This document shows positions 25,402 through 63,495 of a stretch of DNA of 64,000 nucleotides, in pieces. This stretch comes from Amoebophrya sp. A120 (Eukaryota; Protista; Dinoflagellata). Every line of letters starts with the position of its first letter. Position 1 is the first letter of the stretch. The stretch lies in NCBI GenBank assembly GCA_905178155.1, contig CAJINV010000005.1, positions 545,715-609,714 of the forward strand, written 5' to 3'. The notes under the pieces were generated by a model that had not been told where the DNA came from, searched no databases, and saw only the letters and a list, made by a program, of their open reading frames with translations. The translations under genes and the position numbers were made by a program.

Positions 25402-28400
25402 TCAAGCCATCGACGACGCAGTGGCCGCGTTTGTCCCGCCCGCCGATTCGTCGTCAGGCTCCGATATCATCGTATCCAGGTCCATCGGCACCAAAGGCGT
25501 CTCCGTTTTCCCGCGCTCGTCCAACGTCAGCTCCCCATTGCAGGTTTCCAACACCTGCGCGTCCACTTTCTTCACGAACGTCTCAAAAGTATGAAATGCA
25601 AAAGCATCGTACTAGTATAAATCGCATGACAAATTCCCTCAGCATGAAAAATGGAATTTATAATGCGGATTTAGGTTAGGAGGGAGATTTGTGATGCATG
25701 ATTGCGAATACTACGAGTACGATACTTTTGCACAGGATAAAAAGCCCGACACGCCAACTCGTCCGCCGGCTCCTCGCAGTCCTCGTCAACATCCAAAACC
25801 GATATCAACTGTAAAAATGTCTGGGTCTGGAAGAATGCAACTTGTCATGCTAAACCTGAATGATGCAAAAATCTGTGTTGCGTGAGTGCCAAAAGCTGTC
25901 CGCTTTTGACCAAGTTGCGAGGGAGTTTCTCATGCAGGAGAGGCATGATAGAGACCTCAAAGAATCTGCCATGCTGGGTCTCGCATTCCAGACCTCATTG
26001 TTCATGGAAAACCTGCATCACAAATCTTGCATTCTTCCAGACCCAGACATTTTTACATTTGATAACCGACTCGCCGCAACCGTGGATGATGCCGTCTTTC
26101 AAAAGTTGCGGGTCGGTTTTCCGGATAAACGTCGCCTCCAGCGCCCGGCAGCTCCCGGCGAGCTGGTGGATTTCATTCCTCGCCTTGGCGTAGGCCGTGC
26201 AGGCCTGCTTCACGGTCTCGTGGACCGGGACCGCCCGGTCGTACATGTTGATGCTCTTCATTGCGACGTCCACTGTGTGCGGGTCCGGGAAGTCGCCACG
26301 GTCCCGGATCGCGCTGATCTCCGCTGCAGTCAAACGCAGCTCTTCGTACTTCTTCAGCGCGGGGGCGGCGAGGGATTTCGCGGACGGTTTCGGGACTGTG
26401 TGCGAGATTTGCGTTTTGGAGGTCGTCACGTCAACATCACAAGCTTCGCATGTTGTGTGCAACGTGCTATTGATTGGATTTTGGTGTTGATGTACAGTAC
26501 TCGATGTGTCCCTCACCTCTAACGAGTATTAAGTTTAGACATGAAGATCGATAAAGAAAACAAAAGGTGTGTTTTTCTTTTTGCAAGGCAAATAGCCCTT
26601 TTACCTCCGGGCGTCTCGCCTTCCGCTTCCTCCTCTTCCATTTCATCCGCATGCTCCTCTGCATCCTGCTCCGCGGCCTGTTGGTTAACACTTTTCCCAG
26701 GTTCGGGGACCGGTTTGGGGTGATCCAGCTTGTACTCCAACTTTGCCCGCTCTGGATTCATCTTCATTTCTACGGGCGCGAAATCGCGCTTCACATCCTC
26801 GACCGCCTCTTTATCGATCTCATCCGACTTCCGCTGGGCGGCCGCGTGGTGCTTGTGGTGGCCGTGATGCTGATTATGGTTGTACTGCTGGTCTCCGCCT
26901 GGCTGCTGCTTCGCTGTTGACCCAGAAGCTGCCTGCTGTGCCGCGGCATCCTGTGCCGCAGTATCAAATGTAAAAATGTCTGGGTCTGGAAGATTGCCAG
27001 GTTTGTCATGCACATTTTGCATGACTCCTGATGTCTGTGATGCATGCCCTAGCATCACAGATTTTGTGAGGGCTTCCTGATGCCTATACCGCATGACAAA
27101 TGCTCTGTCCGTGTAGCAAAACTTGGACTCTCTTTGCTGCTCATGCAATACAGATTTTTTTAGAATCCAAAATCAGCATGACAAGTTGGATTCTTCCAGA
27201 CCCAGACACTTTTACAGTTGATACGCAGCCTTGTGCGACGAAGAAGACATGATGGACATCAGCCCGACGGGGTTTATATCCTGTGCAAAAGTATCGTACT
27301 CGTATAAATGCATTACAAGTTTCCTCAGCATGAGAAATAAAATTTGTAATGCTGATTTACCTTAAGAAAAAGATTTGTAATGCATGATTGCAATACGAGT
27401 ACGATACTTTTGCACAGGATAGTTTAGCAGCGCCAGAGTATCTTTGAAATGCGCAAAGAAGTTGTGCCAGTTCGCTAGGGGGCCGCTGGCGGTTTTTTCT
27501 TTGGCCTTGTCTGCGTCTGGCGGTGGCTTTGGCTTTGCTGCTGGCGGGGGTTTGGCTTTTGTAGCATCAGCAGGAGTGGGCGGTGTGGGACCAGCAGCCG
27601 CTGGGGCTTCGTTGGCAGCGAAAGAAGTGGTGCGGGATGTAGGCTGCTTCACCTGGAGCCCGATATCCAGGAATTGTGTCACATTCAACTGCATCGGGCC
27701 GTTATCCTGACGTTGTTCCTGCAGCGCAAGAGACGGTGGCTTCCGTTTTCTTGCGCGGCCTTTACTTCCAGTATCCGGATGATGTTGTCCATTCGCACCA
27801 CGATGCTTTGCCTTTTTTCGTTTATTTGCCTTTCGCGCCGAAGCCTTCTCGTTCGCATCTGGTTCATCGCTTCTGGCGTCCTGCTGCTCCTCGTTGCCAA
27901 CTACAGGTTTTTTCGCTTTTGTGCTTGGTCTTGCTGCGGCGATACTACCGTCCGCAGCTTCAGTTGCACTTCGTTTTCCCAAGACCGCATCTTTCGCTGC
28001 CGTTCCCGCGCCCTCCTCCTCCTGCTCTCTTCTGGCTTTGTTCAATACTTTCAGCGCGGAGTCCAGTTCCGTTACGAACGGATCTGTCTCCTCCCTCGTC
28101 TGCGCGTCGTACTCGTCGAATTCGTCCATGACCTCCTGTTTTCCCTCCTCCGTCAGCCCCGGCACGTTTTTCAACACGTTCCAGGCCGCCTCCCGTGCGG
28201 TTTTCCGGAGAATGTCCGGGCCGAGGCGGGCCAGCATGCTGTGATCCAGTTGGCCCATCAGCCGCGCGGAAGACAGCGTTTCCAACGCCTTCGCGCCGCC
28301 GTTCGAAACGAGCGTCTCGACGTCGATCCTTTCTCCCTTCTTCATCATCTTGGTTAGGGGTTTCAGGGTCCCAGCATCTAACCCGAGGACCGGCATCTGC

Positions 28401-28639
28401 AGAGCGGCCTTGTCGGCCATGCGGTTGGGGAACAGGGGATCATGGTCGTCCGGCTGAAAGAAGTTCGGGTTCCCAGGGCCGAGGTTTTTGAATTCGAGAT
28501 GGTTTTCGTTTTGGTGCTCGGGGAGCGAAGGGGAGTTTTCGCCAAGAGCGGTAGGGGTTGGTGGGACGGTACCACCACCGAAAACTTGTTGAGCCGCGAA
28601 ACTCGAAAAATGCCGGGAAGTTCCGGTACCAAATACCAT
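25402..28639 (-). CDS. Hypothetical protein with four introners and one conventional intron (may be two genes split near 26450-26600)
   Basis: In-frame joins LALLN-PVGLM, HKAA-AQDAA, CGESV-LDVDE and CRAF-ETFVK...SSMA*. Confidence 0.65.
25590..25739. mobile_element. Introner, family A, 150 bp, TSD AAAAG
   Basis: Ends TATGAAATGCAAAAGCATCGTAC and GTACGATACTTTTGCACAGGATA. AAAAG at 25585-89 and 25740-44. In-frame join. Confidence 0.94.
25803..26064. mobile_element. Introner, family B, 262 bp, TSD ACCGA
   Basis: About 38-bp TIR TATCAAMTGTAAAAATGTCTGGGTCTGGAAGAATGCAA with 1 mismatch. ACCGA at 25798-802 and 26065-69. In-frame join. Confidence 0.96.
26962..27223. mobile_element. Introner, family B, 262 bp, opposite orientation to 25803, TSD CGCAG
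   Basis: Aligns to the reverse complement of 25803-26064. CGCAG at 26957-61 and 27224-28. In-frame join. Confidence 0.95.
27277..27421. mobile_element. Introner, family A, 145 bp, TSD GTTTA
   Basis: Perfect 29-bp TIR TATCCTGTGCAAAAGTATCGTACTCGTAT. GTTTA at 27272-76 and 27422-26. In-frame join. Confidence 0.96.
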
Positions 28640-28899
28640 GGCTGTGTGATGAGAAGCTACGAGAAGATGACGTCACAACCTGCGAGAACTACGACGCGTC
28701 TTTATGTAACGACATGGACATTCATACAAAAAATTAGAATTGTTCGCTGATCTGTAACGATCGATGGATCAAATTCAGATCAGCTCGATATTCATATTCC
28801 TGAGACAGAATGACACTCAGCTCCAGGAGAAACGAATCGGAGACGAAGCCAAATATTGATCGATTGTCCCAAACATCATTATTCGTCCTTAGACGTGTA

Positions 28900-30000
28900 G
28901 CATGTTCGTAGCGAGCAATGACATCCACTACATTACTTGCGAGAGCCACTCAATAACATCGTCGAACGGGAACGACGGCTCCGACACATCGACTTGCTTC
29001 TTCAATCACACTCACGCTTGTTCTTTCTCACAACATTTACATGAGTAACTGCTCGTCACACGACAACTTCAACCACATCCAAATTCGTTCGACGCTATAA
29101 TTTCGAGGTGGAATAAAACCAAAAGCAAACCTCAGAGTGAGATCTCCGGTGGCGAGAAAAACTAGAGCAGCAACAATGCCATTCATGATCATTGGGCTGA
29201 GCCAATATATCTCAACTGAAACGCGTTCCCTCGAATTGGGGCCATCCGCATAACGAGCGAGCAACGCAACGACGGCCGCCGGACGGTGGCGCAGGCACAC
29301 ATAATGAATCTCTCTACGCCCACGCGCGCCGGGCCGCTCGCGCCCACGGACGCACGCTTCCCTCGGGAATGCCGCACGGCAACGGGGCCTTACCGAGAAC
29401 CATGCGCGGCCGCTGGCACCGGTGCCGGACATGCCGGACGACGGACACACTGGCCCGAACAACACGCGCCTGCCGAGCCTTCAAAATGATACAAAAGGCG
29501 GCGAGTGCAGGGTAATGAAGGGCCGCCGCCAGCGCAAGAAGGCGGCCGAGCGACCACCGACCGGCCCGGCGGGGCCGGCGTCCTTCTATCGGCCTCCCTG
29601 TCTGCAAAAAGGGCCCGGCGGCGCCTGGTTCTTTTGCCGGAAATTCGACCTCGCAGGCTTCCTGGCTCGTTTGCCGCGGCGTCGGGCGCGCCCTTTCGCT
29701 TTAGCATCGGCGTCGCCGTCGGCCATGTTCTTGCTCGTGCTAGGCACAGCACGGGGGAGAGAGGTGGCGAGCCGTTTCACCAATTTCGCGGCATTTGCCT
29801 CGCGTTATTCGCTCGCCGCCTGCGTGCTGACACGCAAAACACTGACACACCACGAACACCCCCAAACTGGCGCCGAAGGGCCACACCGAACGGGCCACAC
29901 CGAAGGGGGCAAAGAAAATGAGATCGCGGGCGCAGGTCTTCATCTTGGAACTGGAAGCCACGCAAGCTGGTTACACGAGCCAGTTACAAACACCAAAAAA
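28900..30000 (-). pseudogene. GC-rich relic with degenerate DDE integrase/transposase core
   Basis: SPMIMNGIVAALVFLATGDLTLRFAFGFIPPRNYSVERIWMWLK (about 29060-29200) resembles rve DNG...FL..GI...P..NG.VER...LK. It also resembles the IS630/Tc1 E-motif. Confidence 0.45.
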
Positions 30001-30306
30001 ACTTAGACTTAAGTACTCTCAAGCAACCTCTCTCGTAGTGTCTCATCTGAACCTGAAGAGGCCTGGCGCGCAAACTGACCAACTCGCGCTCCTGCTCTCT
30101 CGTGGTGTGCACTTCTTTCCACAAAAGAGCACCCCTCGCTCCTGTTCAGTTTCCTCCACGACATTAAGCGAACATGTTGACATTCATTCAATTTCAGCTG
30201 CACGACCCCATGCAAGAACAATTACATCCAATGTCTTTAGCTAAGCCGAGGACGTTGACTAGTCAGAATCCTGTTCCAGCTGCGCGACTTGATTACACGC
30301 TCGGTA

Positions 30307-42075: not shown

Positions 42076-45000
42076 CTACGTCTCGTCAAGATCGTCATCC
42101 AAATGACTAAATGCTCCCCGCGCTCCTGCTATAGATGTAGAATTTACTTCTTGTGTTTTTGCAACACCACCCGTAGCCGCGTCACCCGAGGATCCCGCTG
42201 CAACTTTCGACGCTGGACCCAGCACGTGCAAGATTTTGGGTCGCGGAATCACGGTTGTAAAGGCCCGCAACGGTTTAATTTGGTTTTGCTTCATCATTTC
42301 TCTCGTTTTGCTTTCGTAAGTGTCTTCGACAAGTAAGACCGGTGGTGCAGCTGCAGCAGCCGATAGGGCCGACGCATGATCAGCAGTAGCAGAAGGGACG
42401 CTTTTTGCCTCACCATTTTGCTTCTCGGTACCCCCGACACGCGGTCTCTCTCCTGAGGTTTTGTTGATTTTCGCCCGAGAAAACTTCGATCCTTGCGATG
42501 TACTCGGCCGCGACGCCGCAGTGCTTGTGCTCGGTCGTTTTTGTTCTTTCTTCTCCTGCGGATTGTTTATGCATTGCAAAAGTATCGCACTCGTATAAAT
42601 GGCAAATTTCCTCAGCATGAGAAATAAAATTTGTATATGCGGATTTAGCTTAGGAACTAGATTTGTAATGCATGTTTGCAATTACTACGAGTACGATACT
42701 TTTGCACAGGATATTGTTGAGTTTCAACCAATTGCCGGTGCAGGCGATCCTGGTGGCGGTTGTTGTACTCGCTGCAGACGAATGCGGTAGCGGAAACTCG
42801 TCCGGCTCACCATTGTGCTGACCACCACTGCATCGCTCAACCAAACCGGGATGAGTCGTCAGGCTGGTCCCACCTCCGACTCCTATCGCTGGCACAGAGG
42901 GCGCTGTCTGTGCTCGCGATGTAGTCATCTCTGCTGCAATGTAGTCTTGGCGCTCTCGGTTTGTCGGGGCGAAAAAGCTGTGCATTGGTGTTCTCGAGGA
43001 CGGCGGCGGAGAGTTTAACCCACCGGTTGAGGTTGTACCAGGATGCGGGGGAGGTGGAAAGTGTTGTAGATTTGAGGAAGAACTCCGGCTTTGAACTTGC
43101 GCTGCGTGCAATTGCTCCAGCAAACTCTTCACTTTCTCCCTGGTTTTGCGGTTTTCATGCGTCAAGCGGTTGCTCCACCCGTGTGTCAAGGTGTTGGTCC
43201 GGCTGTTCGAAGATGCGCCTCTAGGGCTCGTCCTTGGCCTTCGGTCGTGCTGTGTGTGCTTCTTTTTGCAAGTCCTACCCTGCTCAGAGGACGCCGCAAC
43301 AAGGATAAGCTCGCTGGAAGACGAAGCTGCAACTTGATTTATTTTACCTCGATTCGCACGCGACGCAGAGCTTGACTCATTTTCGCTGCAGGAGCTGTGG
43401 AGGTCGTAGCTTTGTTCTAAAGAACGCTGCTTCTTGTAGTAGTCCCGCGCACTTGTCTCCTCCACGTACGTATCGTACGTCCGGCCCGCTTTCGTGCGCT
43501 TGTTCTTCCGTCCAGCTAATTGCTCGAGCGGGGAACTTTCTGCTGCTGCGGATGCTTTCAACCATCGCCGGAGCTTTTCGAATAGCAATTGTCGTTCGTC
43601 CACACTCCGCCAGGGTTCGCAGATGAGCTTTACGACGGGGAGAAGAACGTCTTGGACGCTAGGTTGGTCTAGTTGCTGGTGAATCTGCCCATAAGCAAGT
43701 CGTGGTCCGTTTGCGCATTGCGCCGATTCTTCTTCAATCGTCGGACTTAAATCCTGTCCTGCTTGTGGGCTGTTGTTACTCGGCGAGGCTGTGCTATGGT
43801 GATCCGAAACGACCTGTGCGCTGCTCCTCTCCACAGTTGGGGAGCCTAGGCCTGCGTCTACCGGCACAGTAGAACTTGCTGAGTCAGCCGCTGGATTTCC
43901 GGAGGTAGTTGTAGCACTCGTCTGCACGACCTGTCCCTGTCCCCGCTCTCCTGAGCTGCTGGTGTTTTTTGCAATCATAATCTTCGCGATATTTTTCTCA
44001 ATCTGTGCTTCCTCCTGCTTCGCCATTGTTTCCACTGCCGACACCCGCCGCTTCAACGACTTCACTGCTAATTCCTCCTCCCGCCTAAGGTGGCTCATGG
44101 TGTCGCGCAAATCCCCCGCGATGGTCAGCACGTCCGCACGGGTGATAAGTTTCGCCTCTAATCTACTTTCCGCGGAGCTGATACTTTGCCCCATCACCCG
44201 TCGCAAATCCTCAATTTGCTTGCTCACCTCCTCCCGCACCGCGTACTTGGATTTCGACTGAGTTTCCGCTTTCTTATCCCGTTCCGCAAGAAAGGTGTCC
44301 AGTGACTGATTTTCCTTCAAACCGAGCGCGTTCGCGACTCTTTGCTTCACGAAGTCCTGCAGGGAAAAACTCTGTTGTTGCAGCTGTGCAGTGCTGCCCA
44401 GGGAGGCAGAAGCAGTGGGGGAAAAGGGCTGAAGTTGTTGGCTTCGTTCCACATGCTCGGCGCCTCCACCGCTCCGGTCTGCTTCTGGTTCCTCCTCGCC
44501 AGTGGCATCGTCGTCAGCCTCGTTCATTCCCAGAGAAAACACACCGTCACCTAAATTCAGCATTGCCTGCACTCCTGTGCGGACGCGTGCTCGGAAGTCT
44601 TTCTCATTTGCGAATACCAAGTTCCCGCCTTGGCGATGTGAAGTTCCTGTGGTTTGGGTGTCATGGTCGTGGTCCGCATCGTCATTTTCTCCGCCAGCAT
44701 TTCCGTTTCCGTCGGAAGCATTGCCAGATCCGAGTTTTTTCTCTTCAGTAGAATCTTCATCTCCAATGGTGCCGGTTTCGGAACTAGACTTGTCTTCGCG
44801 TGGCCCACTATGGCTATGTTCCTCACTTCCTTCTCCAAATTCGAACTCTTTTTCCTCCTCCGCCGCTAGTAGAGCCGCATCTTTTTTCCGCTCCGACACG
44901 GTCTCCAGCTGGGCCCATAATTTCTCCTCCTGCTCCCTCACCCGGTCCTCTAGCTGCGACAACCTTTGCAACTGCTCGCTTTGCGCGGTCACCAGCCCGC

Positions 45001-45918: not shown

Positions 45919-48884
45919 TCAAGTCTTCGTAAAAATCACCGGGTCGAGCGCTATTTTCGACCGTTCCAATTGCCGTCTCCTCGTTGCTTCTTGCCGCCGA
46001 TACTCCTTCGGCAGCAGGTCAAACGGCAGATTTTGCCACCAGTGCCGGTGGTCGTACAGGTGATTCCGCGTTGGCCGACGGAACCATCCGGGCTTTCCTC
46101 CACCTCCCGAGGATTGACCACCCGCCCTGTTCAGCGACAACAAGGCGCCCTCGGTGAACACACTCGCACGCGTCCGATGGCTCCCACGAAAAGCCGCGCC
46201 CGCATTTGCGTCGGAGTAGTTGTAGCTGCAGCTTGCGGTTGTTCCGTGGGTATTGTATCCACAAGCCCCCGGCGGATAGCTTGATTTCCCACTGAGAATC
46301 GCGTCAATTCGCATTTGCAGCTCCGTCTTCCTGGTGGCCGCTTTGTTCAGGGTATTCGCAGATGAGCCGGAGGTTGTGCACCCCTGTTTGAAAGATGTTC
46401 CGCTGTTCTCGTCCGCAGCTTCTGCCTCTTCCTCCAAACTCGGAAGGGGGTCGAGATATGGATGCCGCCGAATCTCGTCTTATCCAAGAAAAAAACATTG
46501 TAGGTGTATACAATACTTTTTTGGAAGAACAACATTACAAATTTGTCTGGCATGACAGCAAAAACCTGTCATGCGCAGATAGTACGCGAAAACGCCCCTT
46601 AATGGACGCTGCGACGCATGCCAAGCATGACAGACGCAATCATCTTGCATGTGGAGCATCACAAATTTACACTAACAGCGTTTTTTTCTTGGATACGTCT
46701 TCGTCGTCATTCAGAGCATCGGCGGAAGCTGTACCGGGGTCCGTTGTAGCGTTTGTCCCTGGAGGACCCGAAGTTCCTTTCGGACTCGTTCCGGAGGCTG
46801 GCTGCACGGACTGCCGGAAGGATGACCCTCCAGGGCCAACGGAAATGCGTTCGCCCGTCCGCTTCGCTTGCTCGGCCGTGCGCTTGCGGAGAAGGAGTTC
46901 GCGCCTAGAAAATGAAAAAGCATGATGACGCCCTTTTTGCGCTTCAACAATTAGAAGTGTATGAGCATGTTGCGGAAAAACTGTTACACCGGCCGGGAAA
47001 TGGAAAAGATCATTAGTTACAATTCAAATTCTACCTCTCCAACTTCTGCTTCTGTTTCCACTGCTTCTCGAGTTTCGCCAGGATTTTTTGTCGCAGCCGC
47101 CGGTCCGTTTTCGGGGAGTGGTGCAAGTGTCGCAAGCGCACGACTATGGTGCTCTCAACTGTTACATTCTCAGCTGTTACATAAATTTGTGATGCTAAAC
47201 CGACCGAAACCACGCATAAATTTGTGATGCAAGAATGGCAAAACTGAAAGGGGGAAGATTGCGCCTTTTGCATGACAGATTTGGCACAGATTCTCAGCCT
47301 GTTTGGGCCTTCCAGAATTTGTCATGCGCAGCAGCTTGATCGCGTCGAATCTGATTGCAGTTTTGCATGACAAATCGTGTAACAGTTGAGAATGTAACGC
47401 TTGAGAACGCCATAACGACTGAATTCACCGGATCGTACGTGTTCACCAAGTTCAAGTTGCCCGTGGGCAGCAGTTATCAAATGCAAATATGTCTGGGTCT
47501 GGTAACTTGTGATGCTGGGCGGCGTCTCATGATGAGGCCACAAGTGCTGGCTCAGCATGACAAGTTTCTGAGCTTCTATGTGTTGCCTATTCTGCATGAC
47601 AAACTGCGTTTCTGCATCACAGAAAAATGGAGCTTTTGGGTAACGTGCATGACAGATTTAAGAGTCATGCCAGACAAGCATGACAAACATGCATTCTTCC
47701 CGACACAGACATTTTTGCAATTGATAGCAGTCGTGACAGCTTCTCGCGCGGGTCGAACTGGTCCCGCTCGAACTCCAAGTCGCCCAGGATTTCCGCAAGG
47801 GTCTCCCGCCTGGATTCTTGCGTGGTAGTATGCTACTTACTCGTGTGGCTCAAAATCAAACAGCCGTTTTTCAAGAGCATGAAACGTAAGGAGCAATTGT
47901 GCTGTCAACATTGTACTCAGAACTGCCATCACAAGTTGCACTTACTTCTCATCAGAATCTGTGTCCGAGTTGTCGTAGGGGTCCCAAACCTCGTCCTCCA
48001 TGGAGGCGTGTTTTTTCAGTGCGTTCTGACCCAGCGTCGCGCTCACGCCGTCATCCCTCGTTCGCAAGCGTTCCAGGTCCGTCGCGTGGAATGTCGTGCT
48101 GCGACGGTAGTTGGCTACTGTGCAGAGCAATGGAGCATTGAAACAAATCACGCACAGCGACAGATTGGTTCATACCTTCGCAACAGGGAGAGAACATAGA
48201 CATACAAAGGATTATATGTACCAAACAGGATCATGTACCACGCGAGACGTTCGCGGGCGGCGCAGGTGTAGAAGCAGCGGCTCCCTCTCCCTTACCCGAT
48301 GCTGCAGATGCCTCCCCGGATTTCGTTTTTCCAACGCCGATCTGTTTGTTCGTCACCCCCGTGCGCATTTTGAGCTTATCCGCGAAAGCTCGCGCCATGA
48401 CCTGGGCCCGCGGTGACATGGATAATAATGTTGGCTGCTTGGTACAGGCGCTGCTTGGAAGGGAAAACTGCTTTGCAACGCCGACGAGAGCGCGTTCCTC
48501 ATCCTGGTCATGATTCCCACCCTGCAGTGATGCAGAGGCGGTAATTGCGAACTGAGGTTTGCCCACTGGTTGCAGCTGCGACGAAGTTGCAGCCGCGCTG
48601 TACGACCCAGTGAACAGGGTCGGGGAGGTCTGCAAGTGCCCGGTGCTTGTGCAGTTTTTGCCGATGGCGCTGTTGGTGATGGTAGAGCTCGTCAAGCAGG
48701 ATGAGTTGTCCAACCGCCAGGAGGAGGTAAGCCTCCTTGGCCCCGCGGCATCACCAAGCGGCACACTGCTCGTACCCCCGGCTGTCGAGTTCGAGGTCCG
48801 GCGCTGCGACGGCGCCGAGGGCTGGTACCCGGAGATACTGGGGGTGGCATTTGTGAAGCTGAAGGTCGGTAGTTGAGACGACAT
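45919..48884 (-). CDS. Multi-exon hypothetical protein with three TIR elements and conventional introns
   Basis: Joins KLSRL-LPTGN, VVMA-TIVVRL, KLER-RELLLRK (GT-AG) and DDED-EIRRHPY..LEEEAE all stay in frame. Confidence 0.75.
46481..46695. mobile_element. Introner, family F, 215 bp, TSD CGTCT
   Basis: TIR TATCCAAGAAAAAAA. CGTCT at 46476-80 and 46696-700. In-frame join. Confidence 0.93.
47152..47408 (-). mobile_element. TIR element forming a canonical GT-AG intron, family C, 257 bp
   Basis: About 40-bp imperfect TIR (TCTCAA..GTTACATTCTCARCTGTTACA...TTTGTSATGC). Minus-strand ends GTTCTCAAG...TTGAGAG. The frame is supported by the next GT-AG junction. Confidence 0.82.
47475..47726. mobile_element. 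Introner, family B2, 252 bp, TSD GCAGT
   Basis: GCAGT at 47470-74 and 47727-31. Highly similar to 16688-16943. In-frame join. Confidence 0.95.
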
Positions 48885-49039
48885 GCGCGCGCGAGTAGCT
48901 GTTACAGCTTCTGTAGGGGAAACGCGAAGGGTAACGCAAACAACGGCGACCGTTTCAGTGAATAACCACACACCAATGTGGGCACTAAGGAGTACAACTA
49001 AATGTATGCAAAACCAAAAGCAGAGCTGCTAAGCATTTA

Positions 49040-50900
49040 TCTATCAGTGGTCATCCTCATAAAGCGCATGTAGCCGTGTCAGCCAAGCAGGGTGGGGCTG
49101 GAGACGTTTAGGCGCCGCAAATCCCATCTGTCCGGAACACAAATTAATGAGCCAGTCCCCTCCCCTAGCACTGACTTTCCCAACATCGGGCGAAGCGGCT
49201 GACCACCCAAAAGTGACCCAAGTAAGCCGGGGTCTGGTAGGTTGGTTGGTTGCGATCGCAACAGGGCAGGGCAAATGGAGTGATGATGAATACAATAAAC
49301 ACCGGCCACCCACGACTTCGGAGGAGACGGGGGACACCAATCGAAGCGAACGACCCCCCCAATTCGGAAGCCGCAATGAATCTGCACGCAAGGGGTCTTC
49401 GCGCGTGCGTGCCCCCCTGGCAGTGGCAGCGGGATGCCGTCCGCGCCCCAATTGTTAGGGGCATGCATCGGTCGCAAACACCGGAGCGAGTAGCCGCGCG
49501 CCTGTCCTGGCTCGCGCCGGCCCGCCGGGCGCGCCGGAAAGCACGGGTGGCAACCTAGGCCGGTTGCGGATCCATCCGACGGCGCTGCTGGCTGTCTGCC
49601 CTGGCTTCGGCGGTTGGTAGGCTGCAGGGCAGGCCGACCGGGCGAAGGTAGGGCGCCCGCCGGCCGGCCGCGGCGCCCGGCTGGGGCAGCGACAGGTAGG
49701 CGCGCGGCGAAACACGACGCGCGGCCGCCAAGGGGGGGGCCGGCGGGCAAGGCCGCCCGGGCGGGGCGGGGGGCGCGCCATGGCGCACAGAAACAAAGAG
49801 ACGACGCCTCCAATAGGTCCACGCTGCCCACGCCCTCCTCGCCCCCACCTGTGAAAAACTCCCGGGCGGCGGACTTTTCAGATTTGCCGGGCCTCCTCCT
49901 TCCGCTTCTGCCCCGGGGCCGGGGCCGCGCGAAATCCAGGGCGCCCCCTGCCTGCCTTGCGCCCAACACGCTTCGCCAGAGATGGCCGTCGCTTCGGCGC
50001 GGCCCATGCCGAAGCTGTTGGGTACCAAACCGGCCCGCCGCGCGCTCCCCTTCATCCAGCACCCCGCTGCGGCGCGCGCGCGGCAGGGCACAGCCTGCAG
50101 AGCTACCGCCCCCCGCGCGGGCCCCCCTGCGGGCACGCAGGCGGCTTGGGCCAATAGCTGCACGGGAAACAGCGCGGGCGCCCACCGAAAACAAGAGGGC
50201 GGCCAAGGGCCCCGATGGGGCGACTGCGGCAAAACCCGCGGGGCGGCGGCGCCGGCCCTCTAGCAGTTTGTTCGGGCGGCCCCCGCGGGGGGGGCCGGCG
50301 CGGCCCTGCTAGGCCGGCGCAGATTTCCCGCAGTTTTCAATAAAGCCGCAGCGCCGTCTCTTTTGTTTCCATTCGCCTGCCGCGCCTGGCCCTGGCCCGG
50401 GTATTTTCCACACCGTTCCGCCGCGGCGCGCTTGAAACAGCCACCCGGGTCGCAATGTAGGCGAAATGTATGAAGGGGCTCTCGATCCGCTGGGCATACG
50501 ATCCGCGGCAAGGCCGCCGCCGGCCAGGCGGAGGCCCTGCTGTGCTTCACATGCGAGCGCCAGCGCCATCGCCCGCGCTGGCTAGCGCGTGCCCTTGCGC
50601 CCGCGCTCGCGCTATTTTCGGGAACCGCGGGGCCGCCCTGCCACGCTATCCGGAAAACGCAGCTTGAAGTTGACAGCCAGCAACCAAACGCAAACGCCGC
50701 AAAACATTGTGGCGACAACAAATAAAGCATAGAAACTCCGCGAACACTCATGACGGCTAGACGACAAGTTGTGCCCGAAAAGGACTTCTTCCCGGGCGTC
50801 AGAAAACCTCTTCCTCGGGTACTTAATTTTTCGTCTCCTCATTGTCATTTCATTCCTTGCCCATATATTCCGAAACTTGGTAATAAACCCCAATGCATTT
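49040..50900 (-). pseudogene. GC-rich TE relic with degenerate HHCC plus rve integrase motifs
   Basis: GHNLSSSRH...CGVC (about 50690-50780), FRLHCDPGGCFK (about 50430-50465) and QANGN....LLK, in integrase order. No reverse transcriptase motifs seen. Confidence 0.45.
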
Positions 50901-53902: not shown

Positions 53903-54867
53903 CCGGCCGGACGCTGTGAACAAGAGATGACGGGGCCGGAGTTTAGCTTTATAAAATGTTCGAAGTATTGTCGTACGTGTTAAAAATTGATCTGTATTCT
54001 CGAGAAAGGCACTCAGTACCTAGTCCTAGGAATGTTGACTGAGTGTGGGTTGACAAAAATTCACCACGGTTGTACGAAGCTCACCGAAGCAGTAGGAAAA
54101 ATAACAGGCCGCGACGTGCTTACTTTTTTCTCTCGACGTTGCGAGAAACTAACCCTCACGGTTTGGCTCTTTGCAAATGTGAATGTCGTGGTCTCTCATC
54201 GACGCCTGCAGCTTTTTGCTCGAAGACAAAGATAGTCGAAATCTACTGTGCTGTCATGAGGAACGGACTTCTGTTTTTTTGCAGCCGAGATTACGCTCGT
54301 TTTGGAAAGCCAAACAAAACTCTTGACGCAACGTGATTGGCTGCGCGGAAATGGTCAGAATTGATACCACGTGGCATCACGACGCGATATTGATGCTGTT
54401 ACTTCCGCTTGAGATTCTTGCACTTACTAAATGGCGCCAACACAATGTTCACGCTTGCCTACGAGTCGACATCGAAGCAGCCTTTCGCGTTTATGAAACG
54501 CGATGAATATGTTTGTTGAGCACCGCAATTGCTCATGAAAGTCCTGTAGCGTGCTCGTTTTACGTGCTGCGCGGGAAAAATCTACATTTCACGACAAATC
54601 AGTGCATGAGGCCCGAAACGGCCTAAGCATCTCGTGATGCTCATAGACATTGACTGAGAACTCGCCGCGAGCGTACCAGAGTGACACGGTTGCAAGCGGC
54701 TCGTCGTCTGCGTGGCCCTGTAGACAACGAACTGGTGCTGCCGCCACAAAGAACTGGACTAATCTACTGCTTTGGTTACACATGATGACCTACAACTTCA
54801 CGGCCACACTATACAAAGTCGGTCGCATTTTTCTTTCTTCTGTGCTACATACTGAGAATTCGATCGA

Positions 54868-56547
54868 TTACAATTTACTTTCCAACACGATCTTTGCCCC
54901 GCCATACTCTCCCCGCCTCTTCAGCCCGTCCATTTCCCTCTGTCCTTGCCGCAATTCGTTCAGCATTGCCGGGGATTGCGCTTCTTTCAGCGTCAATATC
55001 TCCAGCTCCTGATCTTCCGCCGTACCCAGGTGTTTCCAGCTCTTGTGCAGCTCTTCCAATCTCTCGACGTACAACGCATGTAACCTTTTCACCTCTGCGC
55101 GGAACACTTCGCTATCTGTTTCTCCCTTCACCATCTTCACCGGAATCTCGATCGGCGCGCCGAAGACCGTGTGCAAGGGCGTTTTTGCCGGAATCGTCGG
55201 AAAAAGCAAACTACCGACCGTGTTGTTGAAATTGTGAAAAACGGGGAGAGAAAACTGCATGTTTTTCTGCATCAGGAGTTGAAATTTCCGCAAAAGCGGG
55301 TTGAAAACCTGCCGATACAAAGCCGTTTCCCCGAAAACTAAAACCGGAACCAGCGGCGTCCCGGTGCGTAAAGCCACCTCGACGAAGCCCATCCTGTCTT
55401 TCAAAACGATCCGCATCTTCCCGCCGCCCGAGAGCAGCGCCTCGTCTGCCCCACCCACATACAGCCCAACGGATTTTTTCGCTTCTAGGTTCCTCACCAC
55501 CTTCTCCTTTTGCGCCGTAGTCAATCCGGCCAGCATGCTCCATTCGGCGGCCCCGGGCAGGTGGAAAGCCGCGTCGACCGTGCAACAATAAACCTTACCC
55601 AAATTCGGGTTTTTCTTGTGCAGCAGCTTTGTTTCCAGCCCCGTCCCCTCCGCAAACGTCGGCGCCATGGAAAGCGCGAGGACCCCATGCGGATGGACCG
55701 CGAAGAGGAAGTTTTCGTGGTTCGCTTTTTCCAACGGGTAGGTAAACACGTTTCGGTGCGGGTAGTAGGCGGAAATGAGCTTGAAAATGTAGCTGTCCCG
55801 CAAACCAGGGTCGCCCCGGATTCTCCCCGAGTGCTTCCAGGGGTTAAAATAGGCGAGGACTTCGTACAGTAGGAACCCGAAGGCGAACTTCTTTCGGTTG
55901 TACCCGATGGTGCGCTGGAAGAGCTGCTTCAAAAAGTAGAGTAAAACGGCGGAGTTGATGCCTGTCTGCGTGCAGACCCAGAAGAGCACCGCGGCCTGGG
56001 GAAGCGGGAGAATTTTTTGCAAAATGAGACCGAGTTTGGTTGAAAACTCCGGTTTCGAAACGGCGTGCGGTTCAGGTGGGTGTACAAGGGTGATATGTTT
56101 ATTTTCCAGTGCGGCTGAGGAGGAGGTCTTCTGGTTCCACAACACTTTCGCTTCTTGTTCGTCGTCTTTCTCCTTCTCACTGCTTTCTTGCGCTGGAGTT
56201 ATTTTCGCTGGTAACAGCCCCGGCGTCGTCCGCGGCGTTCTGGTTCTTCGCGTTGGATAATACTGGTGCCCATTAAGTCGAGATGGAGACTCGTGCTGGT
56301 CCTGAAATTGAAGTTTCGCGGAATCATTACATTCACTCTGGTCGAAGTATTTCATGTTTGAGTTTGACGTCAACTCGAGTTTGGCCAAACTCATAAAATC
56401 GTTCGTAACATTGGGCCGAGCGAGGCTAAGAAAAAATGCCGAAGTGACTTTGAATTTAGAAAACGTACGACGATGTCGCAACGGCACGACAGTACAAAAA
56501 TCGACAAAGATATCCGTACCAGGTACAGACGGAACCACACGAGGCAC
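54868..56547 (-). CDS. DGAT2: Diacylglycerol/monoacylglycerol acyltransferase (DGAT2/MOGAT family); start uncertain
   Basis: YYP, HPHG, YVGGADEA and RMGFVEVALRTGTPLVPVLVFGE motifs. Confidence 0.9.
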   Translation of the reverse strand: MPRVVPSVPGTDIFVDFCTVVPLRHRRTFSKFKVTSAFFLSLARPNVTNDFMSLAKLELTSNSNMKYFDQSECNDSAKLQFQDQHESPSRLNGHQYYPTRRTRTPRTTPGLLPAKITPAQESSEKEKDDEQEAKVLWNQKTSSSAALENKHITLVHPPEPHAVSKPEFSTKLGLILQKILPLPQAAVLFWVCTQTGINSAVLLYFLKQLFQRTIGYNRKKFAFGFLLYEVLAYFNPWKHSGRIRGDPGLRDSYIFKLISAYYPHRNVFTYPLEKANHENFLFAVHPHGVLALSMAPTFAEGTGLETKLLHKKNPNLGKVYCCTVDAAFHLPGAAEWSMLAGLTTAQKEKVVRNLEAKKSVGLYVGGADEALLSGGGKMRIVLKDRMGFVEVALRTGTPLVPVLVFGETALYRQVFNPLLRKFQLLMQKNMQFSLPVFHNFNNTVGSLLFPTIPAKTPLHTVFGAPIEIPVKMVKGETDSEVFRAEVKRLHALYVERLEELHKSWKHLGTAEDQELEILTLKEAQSPAMLNELRQGQREMDGLKRRGEYGGAKIVLESKL

Positions 56548-56657
56548 TTTGAAAACGAATCAACGACGACCAAAAACTGACGAACGGGAACGCGGCTAAC
56601 AGATAAAGAAGGAAATGATCAACGCCAACAAGAAAGAAAAATCTAAATCGTTCACAT

Positions 56658-57600
56658 TCATTTTAGTAGCAAACTGTTCGGATCATTCAAGAGCGCTGGG
56701 GCTAGCAGTACCTCCGGCAGTGCACCTGAACTTCCAGTTACACGTCCCACGGACGCGCTCCTGTTGACGAGGGCCTTTGCCTTTTCTCTTCGCAACAAAA
56801 TCTCCGGTTTTCGTTTCGGTTTGACCAAACTCAATTTGTGAAAAGTTTCCTCGAGTGCTGCCAGCTCGGGAAGCTCCGGCCCGTCGCTCTCATCCTCTGT
56901 CAGCGAGATTCCCTTTGCTGCTACGTGCGGAATCAGGCAGCAAGATGTGAAGATCGCAAGATGAAATAGAGCTGCGCTGCGCGAGCCACTGAGGAAACTA
57001 GTCGAGATGTCTTTTCTGCGCCTTGCAACCTCGCGGCCGGAAAAATGCGCCCGTGCGCCGTCTTTTCGCTTCCATTGCGTCATTCTGCTAAAACGCCCGC
57101 GTGTCTGAGACCGCGTGGGGACGCAATGATAATCTTCAATGTTCTTATGCAGTTGCTGCAGCAACCTGGTTGTCTCAACAGAAAGGAACGGCAAAAATGC
57201 AAACAAATCTTCAATCTGCAAAAGCAAGAAAAGGATCTTCTACTTGCTTTCCTGTACTCTACGCAAGAATCTACCAATGATCTAATCCTAAGGCAAGAGA
57301 AAACGAAGTAGCGATGACCTGGGGCGGATTGCGTAACGTAGAAGGAAAGAAAAACATATGAACCACTCGACTTTTTGAACTGCTCTGCCCGTCACTCCTA
57401 AGTAAAGATCGTTCTTTCGCTGGCATGCTGCGGCTCGCACTGATCCTGATGATCTTCCAAGAACGATCCGACCTTCGCTGGCAATGATCACAATCGAGTG
57501 CGACATCATATAGTCCAACGAAGATTCCAGATTGCTGAGTGCTTCGGACAGCCCTCCTGGGTCATCGAAGATAAACGTTCGCTGCGCATGAGGAAGATCC
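56658..57600 (-). CDS. Hypothetical protein, exon structure uncertain
   Basis: 189-aa ORF with a TTTTGCAG acceptor near 57218 and an upstream open stretch. Confidence 0.4.
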
Positions 57601-58403
57601 GGAGCAATTCAGGAAAAACGACAGCAACTAACATCGATACTCATGTCGACATGACGACCCGGAAGATTATCTTCCGGGCCAACAAATGAAAGTGAAACAG
57701 CTCCAGCTGGTCCCGCGGCTGTGTTGTCGGTTCTTGTAATGATTATAAAAAATCAGCTTTTATTAGCGATGTCTCCGAATTGTACAGAAAATGTGCTTGC
57801 AACATTCGTCGAATGCCAAAAAACGCTTGTTCAGCCAGAACTTTTTTCCCATTTTTGAAACTACAAAATGATAAGGCGTTTTCACGAAAATCTCAGATCT
57901 TTGCTTTGTCTTCTGACCTCTCAAGGTGCTTCGATAGTCGGCCCTGCAGCTGATCACAACCGTAGAGACTTCTATCATGAGATGAAGATGCTAGAAAATA
58001 ATGCGGCCAATGGTGCCTCATTTTGTTTTCCACTGTTGCTCCCCGAAAAAGTCAAAAATTGAAACTACTCCGTATGGATAGTTTTTCTTCCTTATTCTCG
58101 CTCCGCGGGCGGAATCGGCGAAACTGGAAAAATCCACGATACCAAATTCTGTGTTTGTAAAAAATCGTAAAACACCCTAACGTTCTACTCACTGATTCGA
58201 AACAAGTAGTGTAGGCAGCCGCGACTAGGACTGCTGTCGTGCCGAATAATTCTACATTTGAAAAAGAAGCAGGTCGCTGGAACTCTTACATTCAACAAAA
58301 TCTTACATTTACTTCGCTTCTTGCACCCCTAAAAAAGTAGTATATTTTTGTCCACGTCGTGGTCTAACACTGGTACTTATCATCTGTTTCTACCACAGCA
58401 CCA

Positions 58404-60613
58404 CTAGTCCGTCGTAGTCTGTTCGACCCTCTCCTCCGTTTGCGCCGCTTGTCGTTCCTGCAGCAGCGCGACGATGAAGGCCGTATCTGCTGTCCGGATG
58501 CGCACGGATTGGTCTTGCAGCGTTGCGACAAAGTGCGGCGACAGGTCAAAGCCGATGTAGCAGTCACGGTCGGGATGCGTGAAGTTCGCTGCAGTGCCGG
58601 CCTCCCGCAGAATGGTCGTAAAAACGCAGACCTTCGTCGCCAGCGGGGTGACTTTTTCCGCAATTTTGCAAAACCGCTCCTGGTCGCCGCGAAACAGAAA
58701 CTGCGCGTCGAGCCGGTCCAACCGCGCGCTCAGGCTTGCCCGCTGCCGCTCCACGGCTGCGAGGACACGGCTTTCGAACCGCCGGACAATCAGCGGGAGA
58801 AGGCAGTTTTTGACCAAGAGTTCCGCCAACTCGCACGGACAGGTCGTGCTGGCTGCGTTGTACTTGGAAGAAGTACTAGTAGAGGTATTTTCATCTCGAC
58901 GCTGGTGGAGTGATGCGAGAAGCGCTTGGTACAGATCGTTCCCCGTGATGGAAAGGCTTTCATCATTGGAGTTGTTACGGAGGTCGTGGCTCTGTCCTGG
59001 ACTCGAGTATGCGTCGCCGCGCAGCAAGACCACTAAACCAACTGTAAAATTCTCTATGAAAACGAAATCTCTTGTCACAGTCACATCCGAGACGTTTTGT
59101 AAGGCGTTTTGCCTTACAAAACGTCTCTGATGTGACTGTGACAAGAGATTTCGTTTTCATATTCTCCACCAAGTCGAGGATGTGAAGCAGAAAACGCCGC
59201 CACAACACCTCGGCTTCCACCTGGCACCGCTCACCGGAGAGAACGTGCCGCGGCTCCTCGTGGCCGAGGGCGTCGCCGTCCGTTCGGGGGAGCGGGAGGG
59301 GGGCGATGTCGACCAAGAAACGGAAACCAGCCATCTCTGCAGTTATTTCCTGCTCCGCGTCGTCTCTATAGTTTGCCTGCTTCAGATACGTGCCGACAGA
59401 AACCGGCGCCTTTTCGCGCTGCTCGTCGTCCAACTTTCGTGGGAACGCATGCATCAGCCGGTGCGCCATCAAATCGCCGGCGGCGTTGCAAAAACCTGGG
59501 ATACCAAGCACAGTTTGTTAACCGTACAAGAGTTCGTAGGATCATTCATAGTAGACCAAAAAGATACACTGTCACAGAAAATGGCCACACAATAACCGTA
59601 AACGAATCCATAGGAAACAGATAAAATAAGTAATAGATACTGTGCACTGCTTCAACAGTCGGAGCTGCCAGGCGTTGATTGGAAGTGGACATGTTCATCG
59701 GAAGCAGGTCTTGCTTCGTGCAAAAGTCTCGTAAGGCGCCCGCGAGACGCAAACCGTTGTGAAAGCTGAAGTTGTGCCTCCAAAAGTGCACTTCTGCAAG
59801 CTTGTCGCCGTACACAGGTCGCTTCGCCCTGTCCGAAAGGTTTACGACAAGCCTGCCGACGACGTCGTCCTCGTTGGCAACAACGACCAGGGCCGGACGT
59901 GCCCGAAAGCGGGGATCGCCCGGTTGTTGAAACAGCCCGAAAGGGAAGCCCTGTGCCGATACCATGCTATGCTCGGACTCGTTCAGCAGCAGGGAGGCCT
60001 TGACCAGAAACCCGGCGACCGCGCGGGACGTCGTCGTACCGGGTGTTTTCCTCTCCCGGTCGTGCATCGCCTGCTGGGGAATCCGGATGGCAGTCACCGG
60101 CTGCGTATGTTGTACTGTGTTCATATGGTTTCGGTTTTGATGTTGCACACCAGGCTGCTGCGTAACTTCGTCCTGGAAGAAGTCGTTTCTCCCACAGTCC
60201 AATTTCCCCTGCAACTCCCACGCGCGCCAGCTCGTCAAGTCCGAGACCCGCGTGCCCACGCCGAGGCAAAACGCCGCATCGTTGCTCAGCTGGGGTGCGG
60301 TACAGCACAGGAGACAAAATTCGCTGACGTGTTGCGCGAGCTGCGCCCGCCCGCGGAGACTCGCAATTTTCAGACTGCGATCCCTCCAGAGAAACAGCGC
60401 GGTCATGCAAAGGTCGCGGAGGAAGCACGCCGGAAGCCGGGTGCGCCGCGCCTGCCGCGCTGGTTTTTGGAGGGGACCCGAGTGAGTCGTGAAGTGGACG
60501 ACACCTGGAGGTGCTGCTTCCGCTAGAGGAGCCCCGGACGTCGAGATTCCACTGCTTTCCTCCGTGCCCTCGAAGCTGCTCTTCGCCGTGGATTCCGTGC
60601 TGGTGCTATTCAT
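58404..60613 (-). CDS. Hypothetical protein with a hairpin introner
   Basis: ORFs 59546-60613, 58975-59511 and 58404-59144. The last two fuse as DLVEN-FTVGL. Confidence 0.72.
59055..59161. mobile_element. Hairpin introner, 107 bp, TSD TTCTC
   Basis: 51-bp arms with one mismatch and a 5-nt loop GTTTT. TTCTC at 59050-54 and 59162-66. Confidence 0.97.
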
Positions 60614-60841
60614 CGAGGGATAGCTGCAGTGTGTTTGTATAGAATCAGTATGTGAAGAAACTGAATCATCTCATCTACGCGCTTTTACAGCGTCTTCAAA
60701 TCTCTTCATGCATTCACATGATGCATGACGTTCATACGGTGGTAGAAGCAACTCAAATGTCGTGGCGGGTACTTTATCAGCAAGAGAAAAACAACATGTG
60801 TGTTCGCCTCTAGGTGGGCGAGCAAGAGAAAAACAAAAATT

Positions 60842-63495
60842 CTACGGATCCTCCACCGCAGCCAAGTTGTCCACCGCACCCAAGTCGTCGGTTATCGCGA
60901 CACCGGTGTGCAACACGAGTGCGAGGCCTTCCATTACGGACCTGGCTTCTGGCGCGTCGAGCATCACGTTGACGCAGTGACGCAAAAGACGCGCGCTCTG
61001 CCCTCGTTGTGCTTCAGGAAAAAATGATGTTGGCAGAGGATTATTTCGGTTTTGCCCTTCGCCTGCACTAGATCCGTTTTCTTCTGGTCGTGAATTTATC
61101 TGCTGCAACCCTGTTTCCCAGTTCCTTTCTGCAATTGGCCACCGGAAATCTGCCGCGTCACCCACCTTCTCCTGCTTTTGGTTTATTGTGTTGTTGCGCG
61201 TGTTAGTTGTTTGCGTTCTTGCGGTGACCGTAGTAATTGCAGGTCCTTTCTTGTCTCCACGAGGCTGTCGTTCCTTGGATATCTTCTGCTTTTCACCTCT
61301 TCCTCTGCTTTGGTAACGATCGGTCATTTCGCTTCCCGCCCGCACTGCCATTTTCGCCGTTTGCAGGGTGCGCGGATCGTGGTAGTTTTCGAAAAAGCCG
61401 AGGTCGTCTTCGATACTTTCCTCGCTGTGGAGAACGTCCTCTTTGTTCTCGTTGTCGTCTTTCGAAATCGGGCGTCGGTGCGATAGATGTGGATGAACAG
61501 AAGCTCTATCTCCAGCATTAATATGTTGATCTTTGCCAAAGCAGTACCCCATCTTCCGGCACAGCAGCTCCCACAAACTACTGGGAACCTCTAACGCGGG
61601 AAGCAAGCCGGGAAACGCGCAGAAGGAGACACTCATGTCTAGTTCGATCGCGGCCAGAATGTAGATCGCTACCGCGTGGGTCTGCAGGCGCTCCATGTTC
61701 TGCCTTTGGCGTTTTTTTATGGCGAGGAGAGACGCGGGGGACCGGTTTGAAAAGTGCGCCTTGGAGCTGCTCCTGCGTCGTTCGCGCTGCTTTCCTTCGC
61801 CGCCCACCGCACCGGCCTCAGCGGGACGAAGATGATCTTCAGCATCAGGACCTTCTTGAGAAGAAGAAGATGAGCAGGAAAAGTCGTGCAATTCATGATC
61901 TAAATCCAGCTCCGTCGCACCCAGCCGGTAGAGAAAGGAGCGAAATTTCAACTTGCCCAGCGGGTCCTCGATGTCGCCCTTGGTATCCTGTGCAAAAGTA
62001 TCGTAGTCGTACTAATTGCAATCGTGCATGACAAACCTGGTTTCTCAGCAAAGTCAGCATTACAAATTCCATTTTTCCTTCTGGAAAAATTTGTAATGCG
62101 ATTTATACTAGTACGATACTTTTGCAGTTCATACTTGGCGACGTTCACCAAATGCGGGTGCAAGGGGAGTTTGATCAGCCGGTAGGTGGTCGTCAGAAAC
62201 TTCTTGCAGTGGTTGAAACCCAAGATCGCCTTGGTCAGCGCGTCTTCGAAATCCGTTTCGACCGCAGCTCGCTGCTCGTACGCGGTCTCCAGACGCGCAG
62301 TGAATATCAGAAGGAAAAATCCCCCCACCCCATACTCAAACGCAGACTTGTGGCCACAAATCAGCTTTGTCATGCTAGAAGGGAAAAGATGCGGACTGTA
62401 GTGCTGGTTGGCGTGGGAAAGCCTTGCACCTTCAGCATGACAGGGGGCAGCTGGAAGTGGGAAACAGCATGACAAATTGCCTGCAAACGAGGCCACAGCT
62501 GCGTCTCTTGGCCTTCTAGCATTACAAGTCGATTTGTGTACTCAAATACAGCATCACAAACTTCTTCGTTTTCGATATGGGGAGGGGGGATTTTTCCTTT
62601 TGATAGTGAAGTCCTGCTCTTCATCCGCTACTTCCGGCGGAAGAAAATCACGGGGCGCGGGGGGAACCTCCCCTGTGGTCGTGTCGCCAGCTTGTTTGTC
62701 GTTGTTCCGTTGAACTTCTACGACTCCAGCGTCCGCAGCAACACCTGACGCCGCATCCTCGCCATCGGTCTCCTCGTCGAGCAGGAGATTTTCATTTTCC
62801 TCTACGAGCGCCCCTGATCGCACAGTTTTCGTAGTCTTCGTCGCGGCCACGTTAAGAAATGAACCCTGCTCCTGTCTTGTCGGCGTCGGCACATGCTGCA
62901 GACTCGCGGACAGACTGCCACTGTGCGACGACGAGGCGCTGTTGGTCGCGGAGGTCAAAATCCCCAAGTGGCTCGAATCGGCAAACGAAGAAAGATCATC
63001 GACAGCGGCTGCTTGCTGCCTGCTCGCGGTCAGGCTGTGCGATGCGGAGGACGAAGAGGAGCTACTTGAGGATGAGGAGCTGCAGCTCGCACTATAAGAG
63101 CAATCGTTCTTGGTCTCCTTGGTTGCGCTCTCTGTTATTTCTGCTGTAGCTGTGGTCTTTCCATTACGAATAAATGTTCCACCACATTGCTTTCGGTTTG
63201 TTTTCGCCCTTTGCTGATTCTGCACAATCTGCTCTAATTCATCTCCGACGGCGCGCAGGAACGTCGCCGTCTGACTCTCCGCGAGAGAAGAGGACACAGA
63301 GCGCAGCTCGGAAGAAGAAAACGTTGCGGCTGCGGGGGTCGAAGACCGCGATCCCGACGAACCTTGGAGGTCGTCCCGGTCGGAGGTTATGGAGTTCTTC
63401 AACACGTTGATCTTCTGACGGTTGCGCTGCGGTGCGGCCGGTGGTTCGCGGTCCAAAGCAGTAGCAGGAACACCAACAGCACCATTGATAGTCAT
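60842..63495 (-). CDS. Hypothetical protein with two introners
   Basis: In-frame joins EQDFT-ARLET and NVAK-GDIEDPLGKLKFR. Confidence 0.8.
61984..62133. mobile_element. Introner, family A, 150 bp, opposite orientation to 25590, TSD CTTGG
   Basis: Ends TATCCTGTGCAAAAGTATCGTA and TACGATACTTTTGCAGTTCATA. CTTGG at 61979-83 and 62134-38. Confidence 0.95.
62305..62605. mobile_element. Introner, family E (D-related), 301 bp, TSD GTGAA
   Basis: TIR TATCARAAGGAAAAATCCCCCC.CCCCATA. GTGAA at 62300-04 and 62606-10. In-frame join. Confidence 0.95.

Follow-up and report, generated by a model that had tools for sequence, protein, structure and literature searches.

Introduction

The introner elements of Amoebophrya sp. 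A120, a marine parasite allied to the dinoflagellates, are bounded by inverted repeats that open with TAT, followed after seven less constrained bases by three or more A; they are flanked by direct repeats of 3-5 nt and fold into hairpins (Farhat et al. 2021, PMC7789003). The same work counts 29,850 repeated introns in A120, without an evident splice signature, did not detect U1, and states as an open question by what means Amoebophrya disposes of introns that number in the tens of thousands and lack a splice-site signature. The present analysis concerns elements of this kind in a stretch of 64,000 nt from A120 (assembly GCA_905178155.1, contig CAJINV010000005.1, positions 545,715 to 609,714; hereafter the window, numbered from its first letter), where they interrupt minus-strand genes in both directions. 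The window elements belong to the published class, and the system is already known: they share with it the organism, the ends, the direct repeats, the hairpin, the families, the removal from RNA outside the GT-AG rule and the co-oriented genes (PMC7789003). The paper gives inverted repeats of 8-20 nt and the stems in the window reach about 30-50 nt; otherwise the two are structurally alike.

How do these elements compare with transposon-derived introns elsewhere? In Polarella glacialis and Aureococcus anophagefferens, introners that resemble MITEs (miniature inverted-repeat transposable elements), with terminal inverted repeats (TIRs) and target-site duplications (TSDs), create introns either way round, with a bias to one direction (bioRxiv 10.1101/2020.10.14.339549; PMC10228655). 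Introns arise in both directions here too, whereas their GT/GC/GA-AG sites come from element and TSD together, which restricts the TSD; here the TSD is free and there is no GT/GC-AG register in the window elements checked. Introner surveys likewise allow for opposite-direction copies. The closest analogue in form appears to be the nonconventional introns of euglenids, which share non-GT-AG boundaries, paired ends, TSD-like repeats, a proposed MITE origin and the presence of canonical introns alongside (PMC11282704; PMC12501133). These belong to an unrelated lineage, have reported circular excision products and carry CAG/CTG at +4-6 / -8-6, a pairing that is not present in the end profiles here, where the pattern is TAT-N7-AAAA. 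The TIR- and TSD-bearing introns of Fritillaria borealis also have non-canonical ends, with a preference for AG-AC/AG-AT and a reported adapted U2 spliceosome (PMC11282704; bioRxiv 10.1101/2025.08.15.670264), whereas no such dinucleotide is found here. In the SOS splicing of C. elegans and human cells, DNA transposons leave the mRNA through paired inverted repeats at non-GU-AG sites; that process is reported to be imprecise, to leave indels and to tolerate scrambled repeats (PMC12779559), whereas removal here appears exact and an end motif is shared across families. Symmetric fungal stwintrons differ in that they work on one strand only.

On element direction in Amoebophrya the literature searched holds no statement, although figures S19-S25 of PMC7789003 and the subscription literature may hold one, and the sections of PMC7789003 searched contain neither a count of direction relative to the host gene nor a comparison of G.U with A.C mismatches. 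What is new here is a direction count and a G.U hint, both of them small additions; a new mechanism is not established.

Elements of the window

Elements were defined by TAT...ATA ends that are complementary at 10/16 or more of their bases and by an exact TSD of 5 bp. Fourteen elements in the window fit this definition (Table 1), where 40 block shuffles yield 0-2 (mean 0.33); with the TIR filter dropped, TSD and TAT/ATA alone are at chance level (16 real against 14-33 shuffled). The published A120 end pattern fits 13 of the 14, the 5-bp TSD is exact at every one, and the elements are repeated in families, of which family A (25590, 27277, 42568 and 61984) and family B (24179, 25803, 26962, 16688 and 47475) each occur in both directions.

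The original prediction had singled out two pairs of opposite orientation, 25590 with 61984 and 25803 with 26962, and the positions and directions of all four elements hold. The family A pair is 83% identical when one member is reversed and 68% the same way round (interiors 75 against 55), the family B pair 75% and 68% (interiors 67 against 59). To treat the second pair as one and the same element goes too far; because their reversed identity is 75%, 25803 and 26962 are relatives only.

Table 1. Elements, genes and canonical intron of the window. Class I denotes a TATCC-type end at the 5' side in the transcript.
Feature	Position	Strand	Length	TSD	Remarks
Family A element	25590-25739		150 nt	AAAAG (25585-25589 / 25740-25744)	class I
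Family A element	61984-62133		150 nt	CTTGG	opposite direction, class II
Family A element	27277-27421		145 nt	GTTTA	TATCC at both ends; interior direction as 25590
Family A element	42568-42713		146 nt	TTGTT	class I
Family B element	25803-26064		262 nt	ACCGA	class I
Family B element	26962-27223		262 nt	CGCAG	direction opposite to 25803
Family B element	24179-24443			CCGGC	91% to 25803, same direction; one family-A-type end
Family B-related element	16688-16943		256 nt	AACCG	opposite to 25803
Family B-related element	47475-47726		252 nt	GCAGT	90% to 16688, same direction
Other-family element	16319-16632		314 nt	AGCGG	junction under coding threshold on one side
Other-family element	46481-46695		215 nt	CGTCT	107 + 187 open codons; one side under score threshold
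Other-family element	47145-47414		270 nt	ACGAC	sole one of 14 without A run at positions 11-13
Near-perfect palindromic element	59055-59161		107 nt	TTCTC
Other-family element	62305-62605		301 nt	GTGAA	shares host gene with 61984
Host gene	25405-28672	minus			740-aa stop-to-stop frame once four elements and one canonical intron are removed
Canonical GT-AG intron	26396-26604	minus	209 nt		in the 25405-28672 transcript
Host gene of 24179	23132-24886	minus			495-aa frame
Host gene of 61984 and 62305	60845-63528	minus			741-aa frame after removal
Diacylglycerol acyltransferase (DGAT) gene	54871-57083	minus			carries no element

Restoration of the reading frame

Removal of the elements, each with one TSD, yields minus-strand frames of 234 aa (25405-26528), 578 aa (26522-28672) and 741 aa (60845-63528); exact removal of 61984 joins 361 and 380 open codons. 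As had been predicted, all four named elements restore the frame: exact removal passes a two-sided coding test at each, and other removal lengths (-5, -2, -1, +1, +2) all fail. Over the whole window exact removal passes at 12 of 14 junctions (16319 and 46481 fail) and the alternatives at 2 of 70, and the best coding strand is minus at all 14, in keeping with the minus-strand host genes of the prediction. Elements 25803 and 26962 break their gene via stop codons and not through a frameshift, because each with its TSD measures 267 nt, a multiple of three, and has stops in all three minus frames. Frame restoration is necessary as proof of removal and is not sufficient, because an insertion minus one TSD always returns the pre-insertion sequence.

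Removal from RNA

Contigs of sequencing runs were compared with the window over 23932-27801, the RNA evidence being the contigs of one run (X3). Record 11 of X3 (2487 nt, depth 23.3) maps to 27422-27801, 26605-26956, 26064-26395 and 25250-25584, with gaps of 48 and 57 nt that have the lengths expected for two short exons, these being deduced from coordinates. Elements 25590, 25803, 26962 and 27277 are missing from it, each together with exactly one TSD. The contig also skips the minus-strand GT-AG intron, which fixes the transcript strand as minus, and X3 depth is zero at 24964-25221; because of these two properties X3 behaves as RNA. Record 9 skips 270 nt at 24179, which is the element plus one TSD. 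Removal at non-canonical sites is found in five of the five elements of the stretch compared with RNA contigs (nine of the 14 window elements lie outside it). In the DNA-like run X1, records 1, 4, 6 and 8 pass from exon into elements and also span the canonical intron, with 0 differences, at a single-copy depth of 25-29 and with no break at the TSD. Five copies are removed from RNA and not from DNA (one RNA run, one DNA run), and both family B directions, 25803 and 26962, leave one transcript. The notion that one orientation only is removed is contradicted for family B by this one RNA contig; for family A the case for removal in both directions comes from the conserved-gene and count evidence given below.

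Could the contigs mirror DNA that has been edited? Removal from the DNA, whether by programmed excision or by a transposase, would suit the anatomy of TIR and TSD, and direction-blind removal would be natural for a machine that acts on DNA; X1 may also be the very run from which the window derives, and rare forms are lost from contigs. Ciliate-type internal eliminated sequences are removed in this way, whereas here the DNA-like contigs keep the elements (rare excision would escape contigs), running unbroken from exon into element at single-copy depth, and a second assembly keeps the elements in place. DNA-level removal is on this evidence very improbable.

Only a slim chance attaches to the idea that the skipped forms are not splicing products at all and arise as reverse-transcriptase template switches between direct repeats of 5-6 nt at the base of a stable hairpin. 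A hairpin with short direct repeats is a geometry that yields such artefacts, and all of the RNA evidence consists of cDNA-derived contigs. Retained elements would bring stops or frameshifts, yet on either side the frames run on without a stop for hundreds of codons; among the genes that carry elements are those for FtsH, topoisomerase II, the gamma-tubulin complex, calpain and ABC proteins; and a single unbroken contig crosses five junctions.

A separate observation concerns the raw RNA run X9, which at 25799-25887 and 24199-24266 shows one abundant transcript with a family-B-like end piece of ~90 nt and fixed flanks. This transcript is element sequence retained in RNA at another locus or strain.

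Directions in a related assembly

Related contigs were sampled as 140 of about 200 stretches (406 kb), fetched with one exact family-A pattern and biased to that pattern; only 80 of the 140 loci had long flanks. Their elements are 79-96% identical to those of the window, and their FtsH piece is identical to an A120 protein over 150 aa. The codon model, trained on the window, chose the frame correctly for 79 of 83 minus-strand chunks held out from it. As a check on artefacts of strand calling, 59 of 60 loci are strand-consistent, and genes of either strand contain class I as well as class II copies. Exact removal leaves coding sequence on both sides at 159 of 273 junctions with adequate flanks, against 4-11 for the five other lengths; these frames and the exact lengths in the contigs are unlike SOS-type indels, with rare imprecise forms being invisible in contigs.

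The count of sense and antisense copies per family that the prediction had proposed genome-wide was run on these 140 loci, and is near 1:1: relative to the host gene, family A stands at 39:29 (64:47 and 27:20 under looser and stricter calls) and family B at 12:11. Both directions occur in 16 of 18 non-A clusters (15 of 17 others with at least two members, and the main B cluster at 8:9), and reversed pairs of elements are up to 92% identical. The exact search pattern in family A lies at the 5' end in 51 copies and at the 3' end in 23 (p 0.0015), which weighs against perfect symmetry.

The conserved genes bear on the second class in particular. A class II family-A copy (L002:2924-3072, in the direction of 61984) lies in FtsH between FVDILQH and PDKY, and the residues that flank it are contiguous in P0035 (802/803), P0054 (1816/1817) and P0032 (462/463); the upstream FtsH piece has no PDB match. 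A Pfam scan of one strand covered 92 flanking pieces, with at least 25 codons on each side at 46 of 91 A/B junctions. Fifteen of the 92 pieces match, nine of them at E<1e-5, and at only one junction do both flanks match (Galactosyl_T, at 32-79 and then at 85-112, weak). Strong AAA, DUF179, calpain and ABC domains contain or adjoin class II copies.

These results bear on the proposal that only one direction is truly removed, the other copies lying in dead genes where frame restoration is merely apparent. Restoration on paper is automatic, the exact-anchor skew of 51:23 in family A (p 0.0015) points the same way, and 61984 lies outside the stretch compared with RNA contigs. Set against this, a single transcript contig lacks family B elements of either direction, class II copies occupy or adjoin strong Pfam domains and the overall ratios are near 1:1, so that the proposal is highly unlikely to hold.

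Among further features of the related loci, two family-A copies (L053:1951 and L053:2860) lie within one type II topoisomerase gene, and other copies occupy or adjoin domains of the gamma-tubulin complex, calpain, ABC and EF-hand types. The TSDs are exact in 104 of 135 copies and have one mismatch in 27 of 135; the mismatched TSDs (30 copies) did not place the cut. Two loci, L103 and L108, have an altered terminal triplet and are not called coding.

The shared ends

Whichever way an element lies, its transcript begins with UAU-N7-AAAA and ends with UUUU-N7-AUA. In transcript terms the profile of the 5' end mirrors that of the 3' end, and the letters of the TSD are unconstrained. A occupies end positions 11-14 in 484-534 of 572 ends, and TAT starts the far end in 132 of 135 copies whose alignment did not require it. 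A GT-AG, GC-AG or GA-AG reading is possible in none of six window elements checked, and a GT/GC-AG register in nine of 141 elements overall, against five antisense. For the four named elements long stems are predicted in the transcribed direction, for both orientations, with z of -6.5 to -10.5. Common to both directions is only the terminal repeat, whose two copies are predicted to form a stem.

The original prediction had placed a symmetric removal signal in the TIR or its structure. The location is upheld, the ends being the sole shared part, and the symmetry is perhaps imperfect, given a G.U bias and a 2:1 skew in one subset. The argument by which it was reached does not hold, in that a symmetric mechanism is not implied by the polarity of spliceosomal introns: whichever way an inverted repeat lies, its 5' and 3' ends are the same, and a polar machine reads these ends both ways.

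Direction can affect the RNA stem only via G.U as against A.C mismatches. In family A the stem mismatches favour G.U over A.C in the transcribed strand, by 39 to 15 copies (24 to 9 under strict calls, 32 to 14 with one copy per locus, 29 to 4 at position 21), and the interior columns, as a control, have no matching A>G bias. The bias hints at RNA pairing and at imperfect symmetry, and could be behind the 51:23 skew.

Mechanism of removal

The window elements are, with fair probability, Amoebophrya introner elements that occupy genes in both directions and leave the RNA with one TSD, likely by a non-GT-AG pathway that reads their paired ends. Insertion would occur by direction-blind DNA transposition, as suggested by the TIRs, the varied 5-bp TSDs and the near 1:1 directions, no transposase being seen; removal would occur at the level of RNA and not DNA, as with the five copies. 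Either direction would work in that the transcript always presents UAU-N7-AAAA ... UUUU-N7-AUA, predicted to close a long stem. The machine would likely recognise this stem together with the shared end motif and cut at fixed unequal offsets that total five flanking bases. The cut would not be mirror-symmetric about the hairpin, because the number of flanking bases removed is odd, and the asymmetry would be set by the polarity of the RNA and not by the direction of the element.

What machine might do this? A remodelled U2 spliceosome, which would read the TIR ends as polar donor- and acceptor-side signals with the hairpin as a by-product of transposon origin, is a tentative answer. Mirror ends would offer it identical polar signals both ways, and it would accommodate the removal of 24179 despite a weak tip; spliceosomal introners in two directions are reported from Polarella and Aureococcus, the TIR-derived non-canonical introns of Fritillaria are reported to be spliced by an adapted spliceosome, and Amoebophrya, with U1 undetected, retains nearly all spliceosome proteins (PMC7789003). 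Less easily reconciled with it are the lack of a GT/GC-AG register, the free letters of the TSD, the GCAT(G/C/T)ACAA motif described below, whose direction differs by family so that there is no fixed branch point, and the bias of family A towards G.U. Placed slightly ahead of the remodelled spliceosome is a dedicated pathway, in which putative enzymes would cut and join under the guidance of the hairpin. Its furthest form, which is possible and still doubtful, would be an exact, spliceosome-independent RNA repair that acts on the paired transposon end common to MITE families in their hundreds, takes away one TSD of 5 nt, whatever its letters, and re-ligates the exons, with direction mattering only via G.U as against A.C.

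A number of points weigh against removal in both directions by a pathway that reads paired ends. X3 is only guessed to be RNA (its label is 'RNA?') and contributes the contigs of one run; contigs drop rare forms and give no figure for the efficiency or precision of removal by direction; and the raw RNA runs X9 and X10 cover no exons here, matching only element pieces from other loci. Element 61984 is without read or homolog support, 114 of the 273 junctions are not called coding, and gene model P0033 of the related assembly joins the FtsH exons inexactly. The tip of 24179 is weakly paired (z -3.6) yet its removal is exact, which fits the reading of a motif as well as it fits pairing. The G.U bias is post hoc, is 76 against 76 in other families and 127 against 105 over all elements (p 0.17), and is absent at conserved columns (30 against 39) and in bystander copies (14 against 15); subfamily history could mimic it in family A. 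Folding energy has no preference for the transcribed strand (112/239), and the needs of a transposase alone can account for the conservation of the ends.

Further features of the window

The element at 24179-24443 is chimeric, with a family-B body and a family-A-type end (TATGAAATGCAAAAGC); its tip pairs poorly, its removal in RNA is still exact, and it suggests that element families exchange ends. The element at 59055-59161 is nearly all inverted repeat (51-bp arms), is without a relative among the fetched loci and forms a minimal natural substrate. The motif GCAT(G/C/T)ACAA lies ~40 nt inside each end and is repeated internally, with 34 of its 41 window matches within the 3095 nt of elements. 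Common to unrelated families, it faces inward in family B but outward in copies of family A, and is a candidate site for a transposase or removal factor; a role as branch point is ruled out, as its direction varies by family. Seven matches outside called elements (1000, 6380, 7413, 22097, 22204, 38634 and 40719) may mark decayed elements, and at 22090-22260 there is a right end of TAT type to which no left end or TSD corresponds. No transposase family was found among 37 window frames scanned, and Rfam has no match within the window.

The host is an Amoebophrya of A120 type, as given by 100% and 99.5% identity to GSA120T protein, the prefix being the A120 gene identifier. For the DGAT frame (54871-56559) the identity to a GSA120T... 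protein is 100% across 74% of the frame, with Amoebophrya sp. A25 as the next named matches. At position 55060 the public DGAT model P0001 shifts frame and has a different end, whereas the window frame continues, similar to the C-terminus of P0002; this is possibly a difference of annotation or assembly. The 25405-28672 host gene has no Pfam family in the single exon scanned (27428-28672). For the 61984 host gene no spliced protein was found, and an ortholog search gave two weak matches of 25-29% identity.

At 6300-7700 an array of 39-bp units in two opposed blocks makes up a large, imperfect inverted repeat, with the GCATGACAA motif on either side of it in opposite orientations; it is possibly a large fold-back element. 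GC-rich islands (62-69%) at 4000-6000, 12000-14000 and 48000-50300 have frames that overlap on both strands, a poor codon-model fit and no Pfam family, and include the sole long plus-strand frame (12065-13537, 491 aa). AT-rich tandem arrays of 31 bp and 18 bp lie at 63491-63982, immediately upstream of the 61984 host gene.

Significance

Direction-independence narrows the signal to the mirrored ends of the elements, and excludes any one-way internal branch point. Elements 25803 and 26962, reversed with respect to one another in one transcript with a GT-AG intron between them, make a ready natural control, and the comparison of G.U with A.C is a cheap genome-wide way to separate RNA pairing from the reading of sequence. 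Were the exact, spliceosome-independent repair to prove true, it would be a precise counterpart of SOS splicing, by which insertions in Amoebophrya would be harmless in either direction.

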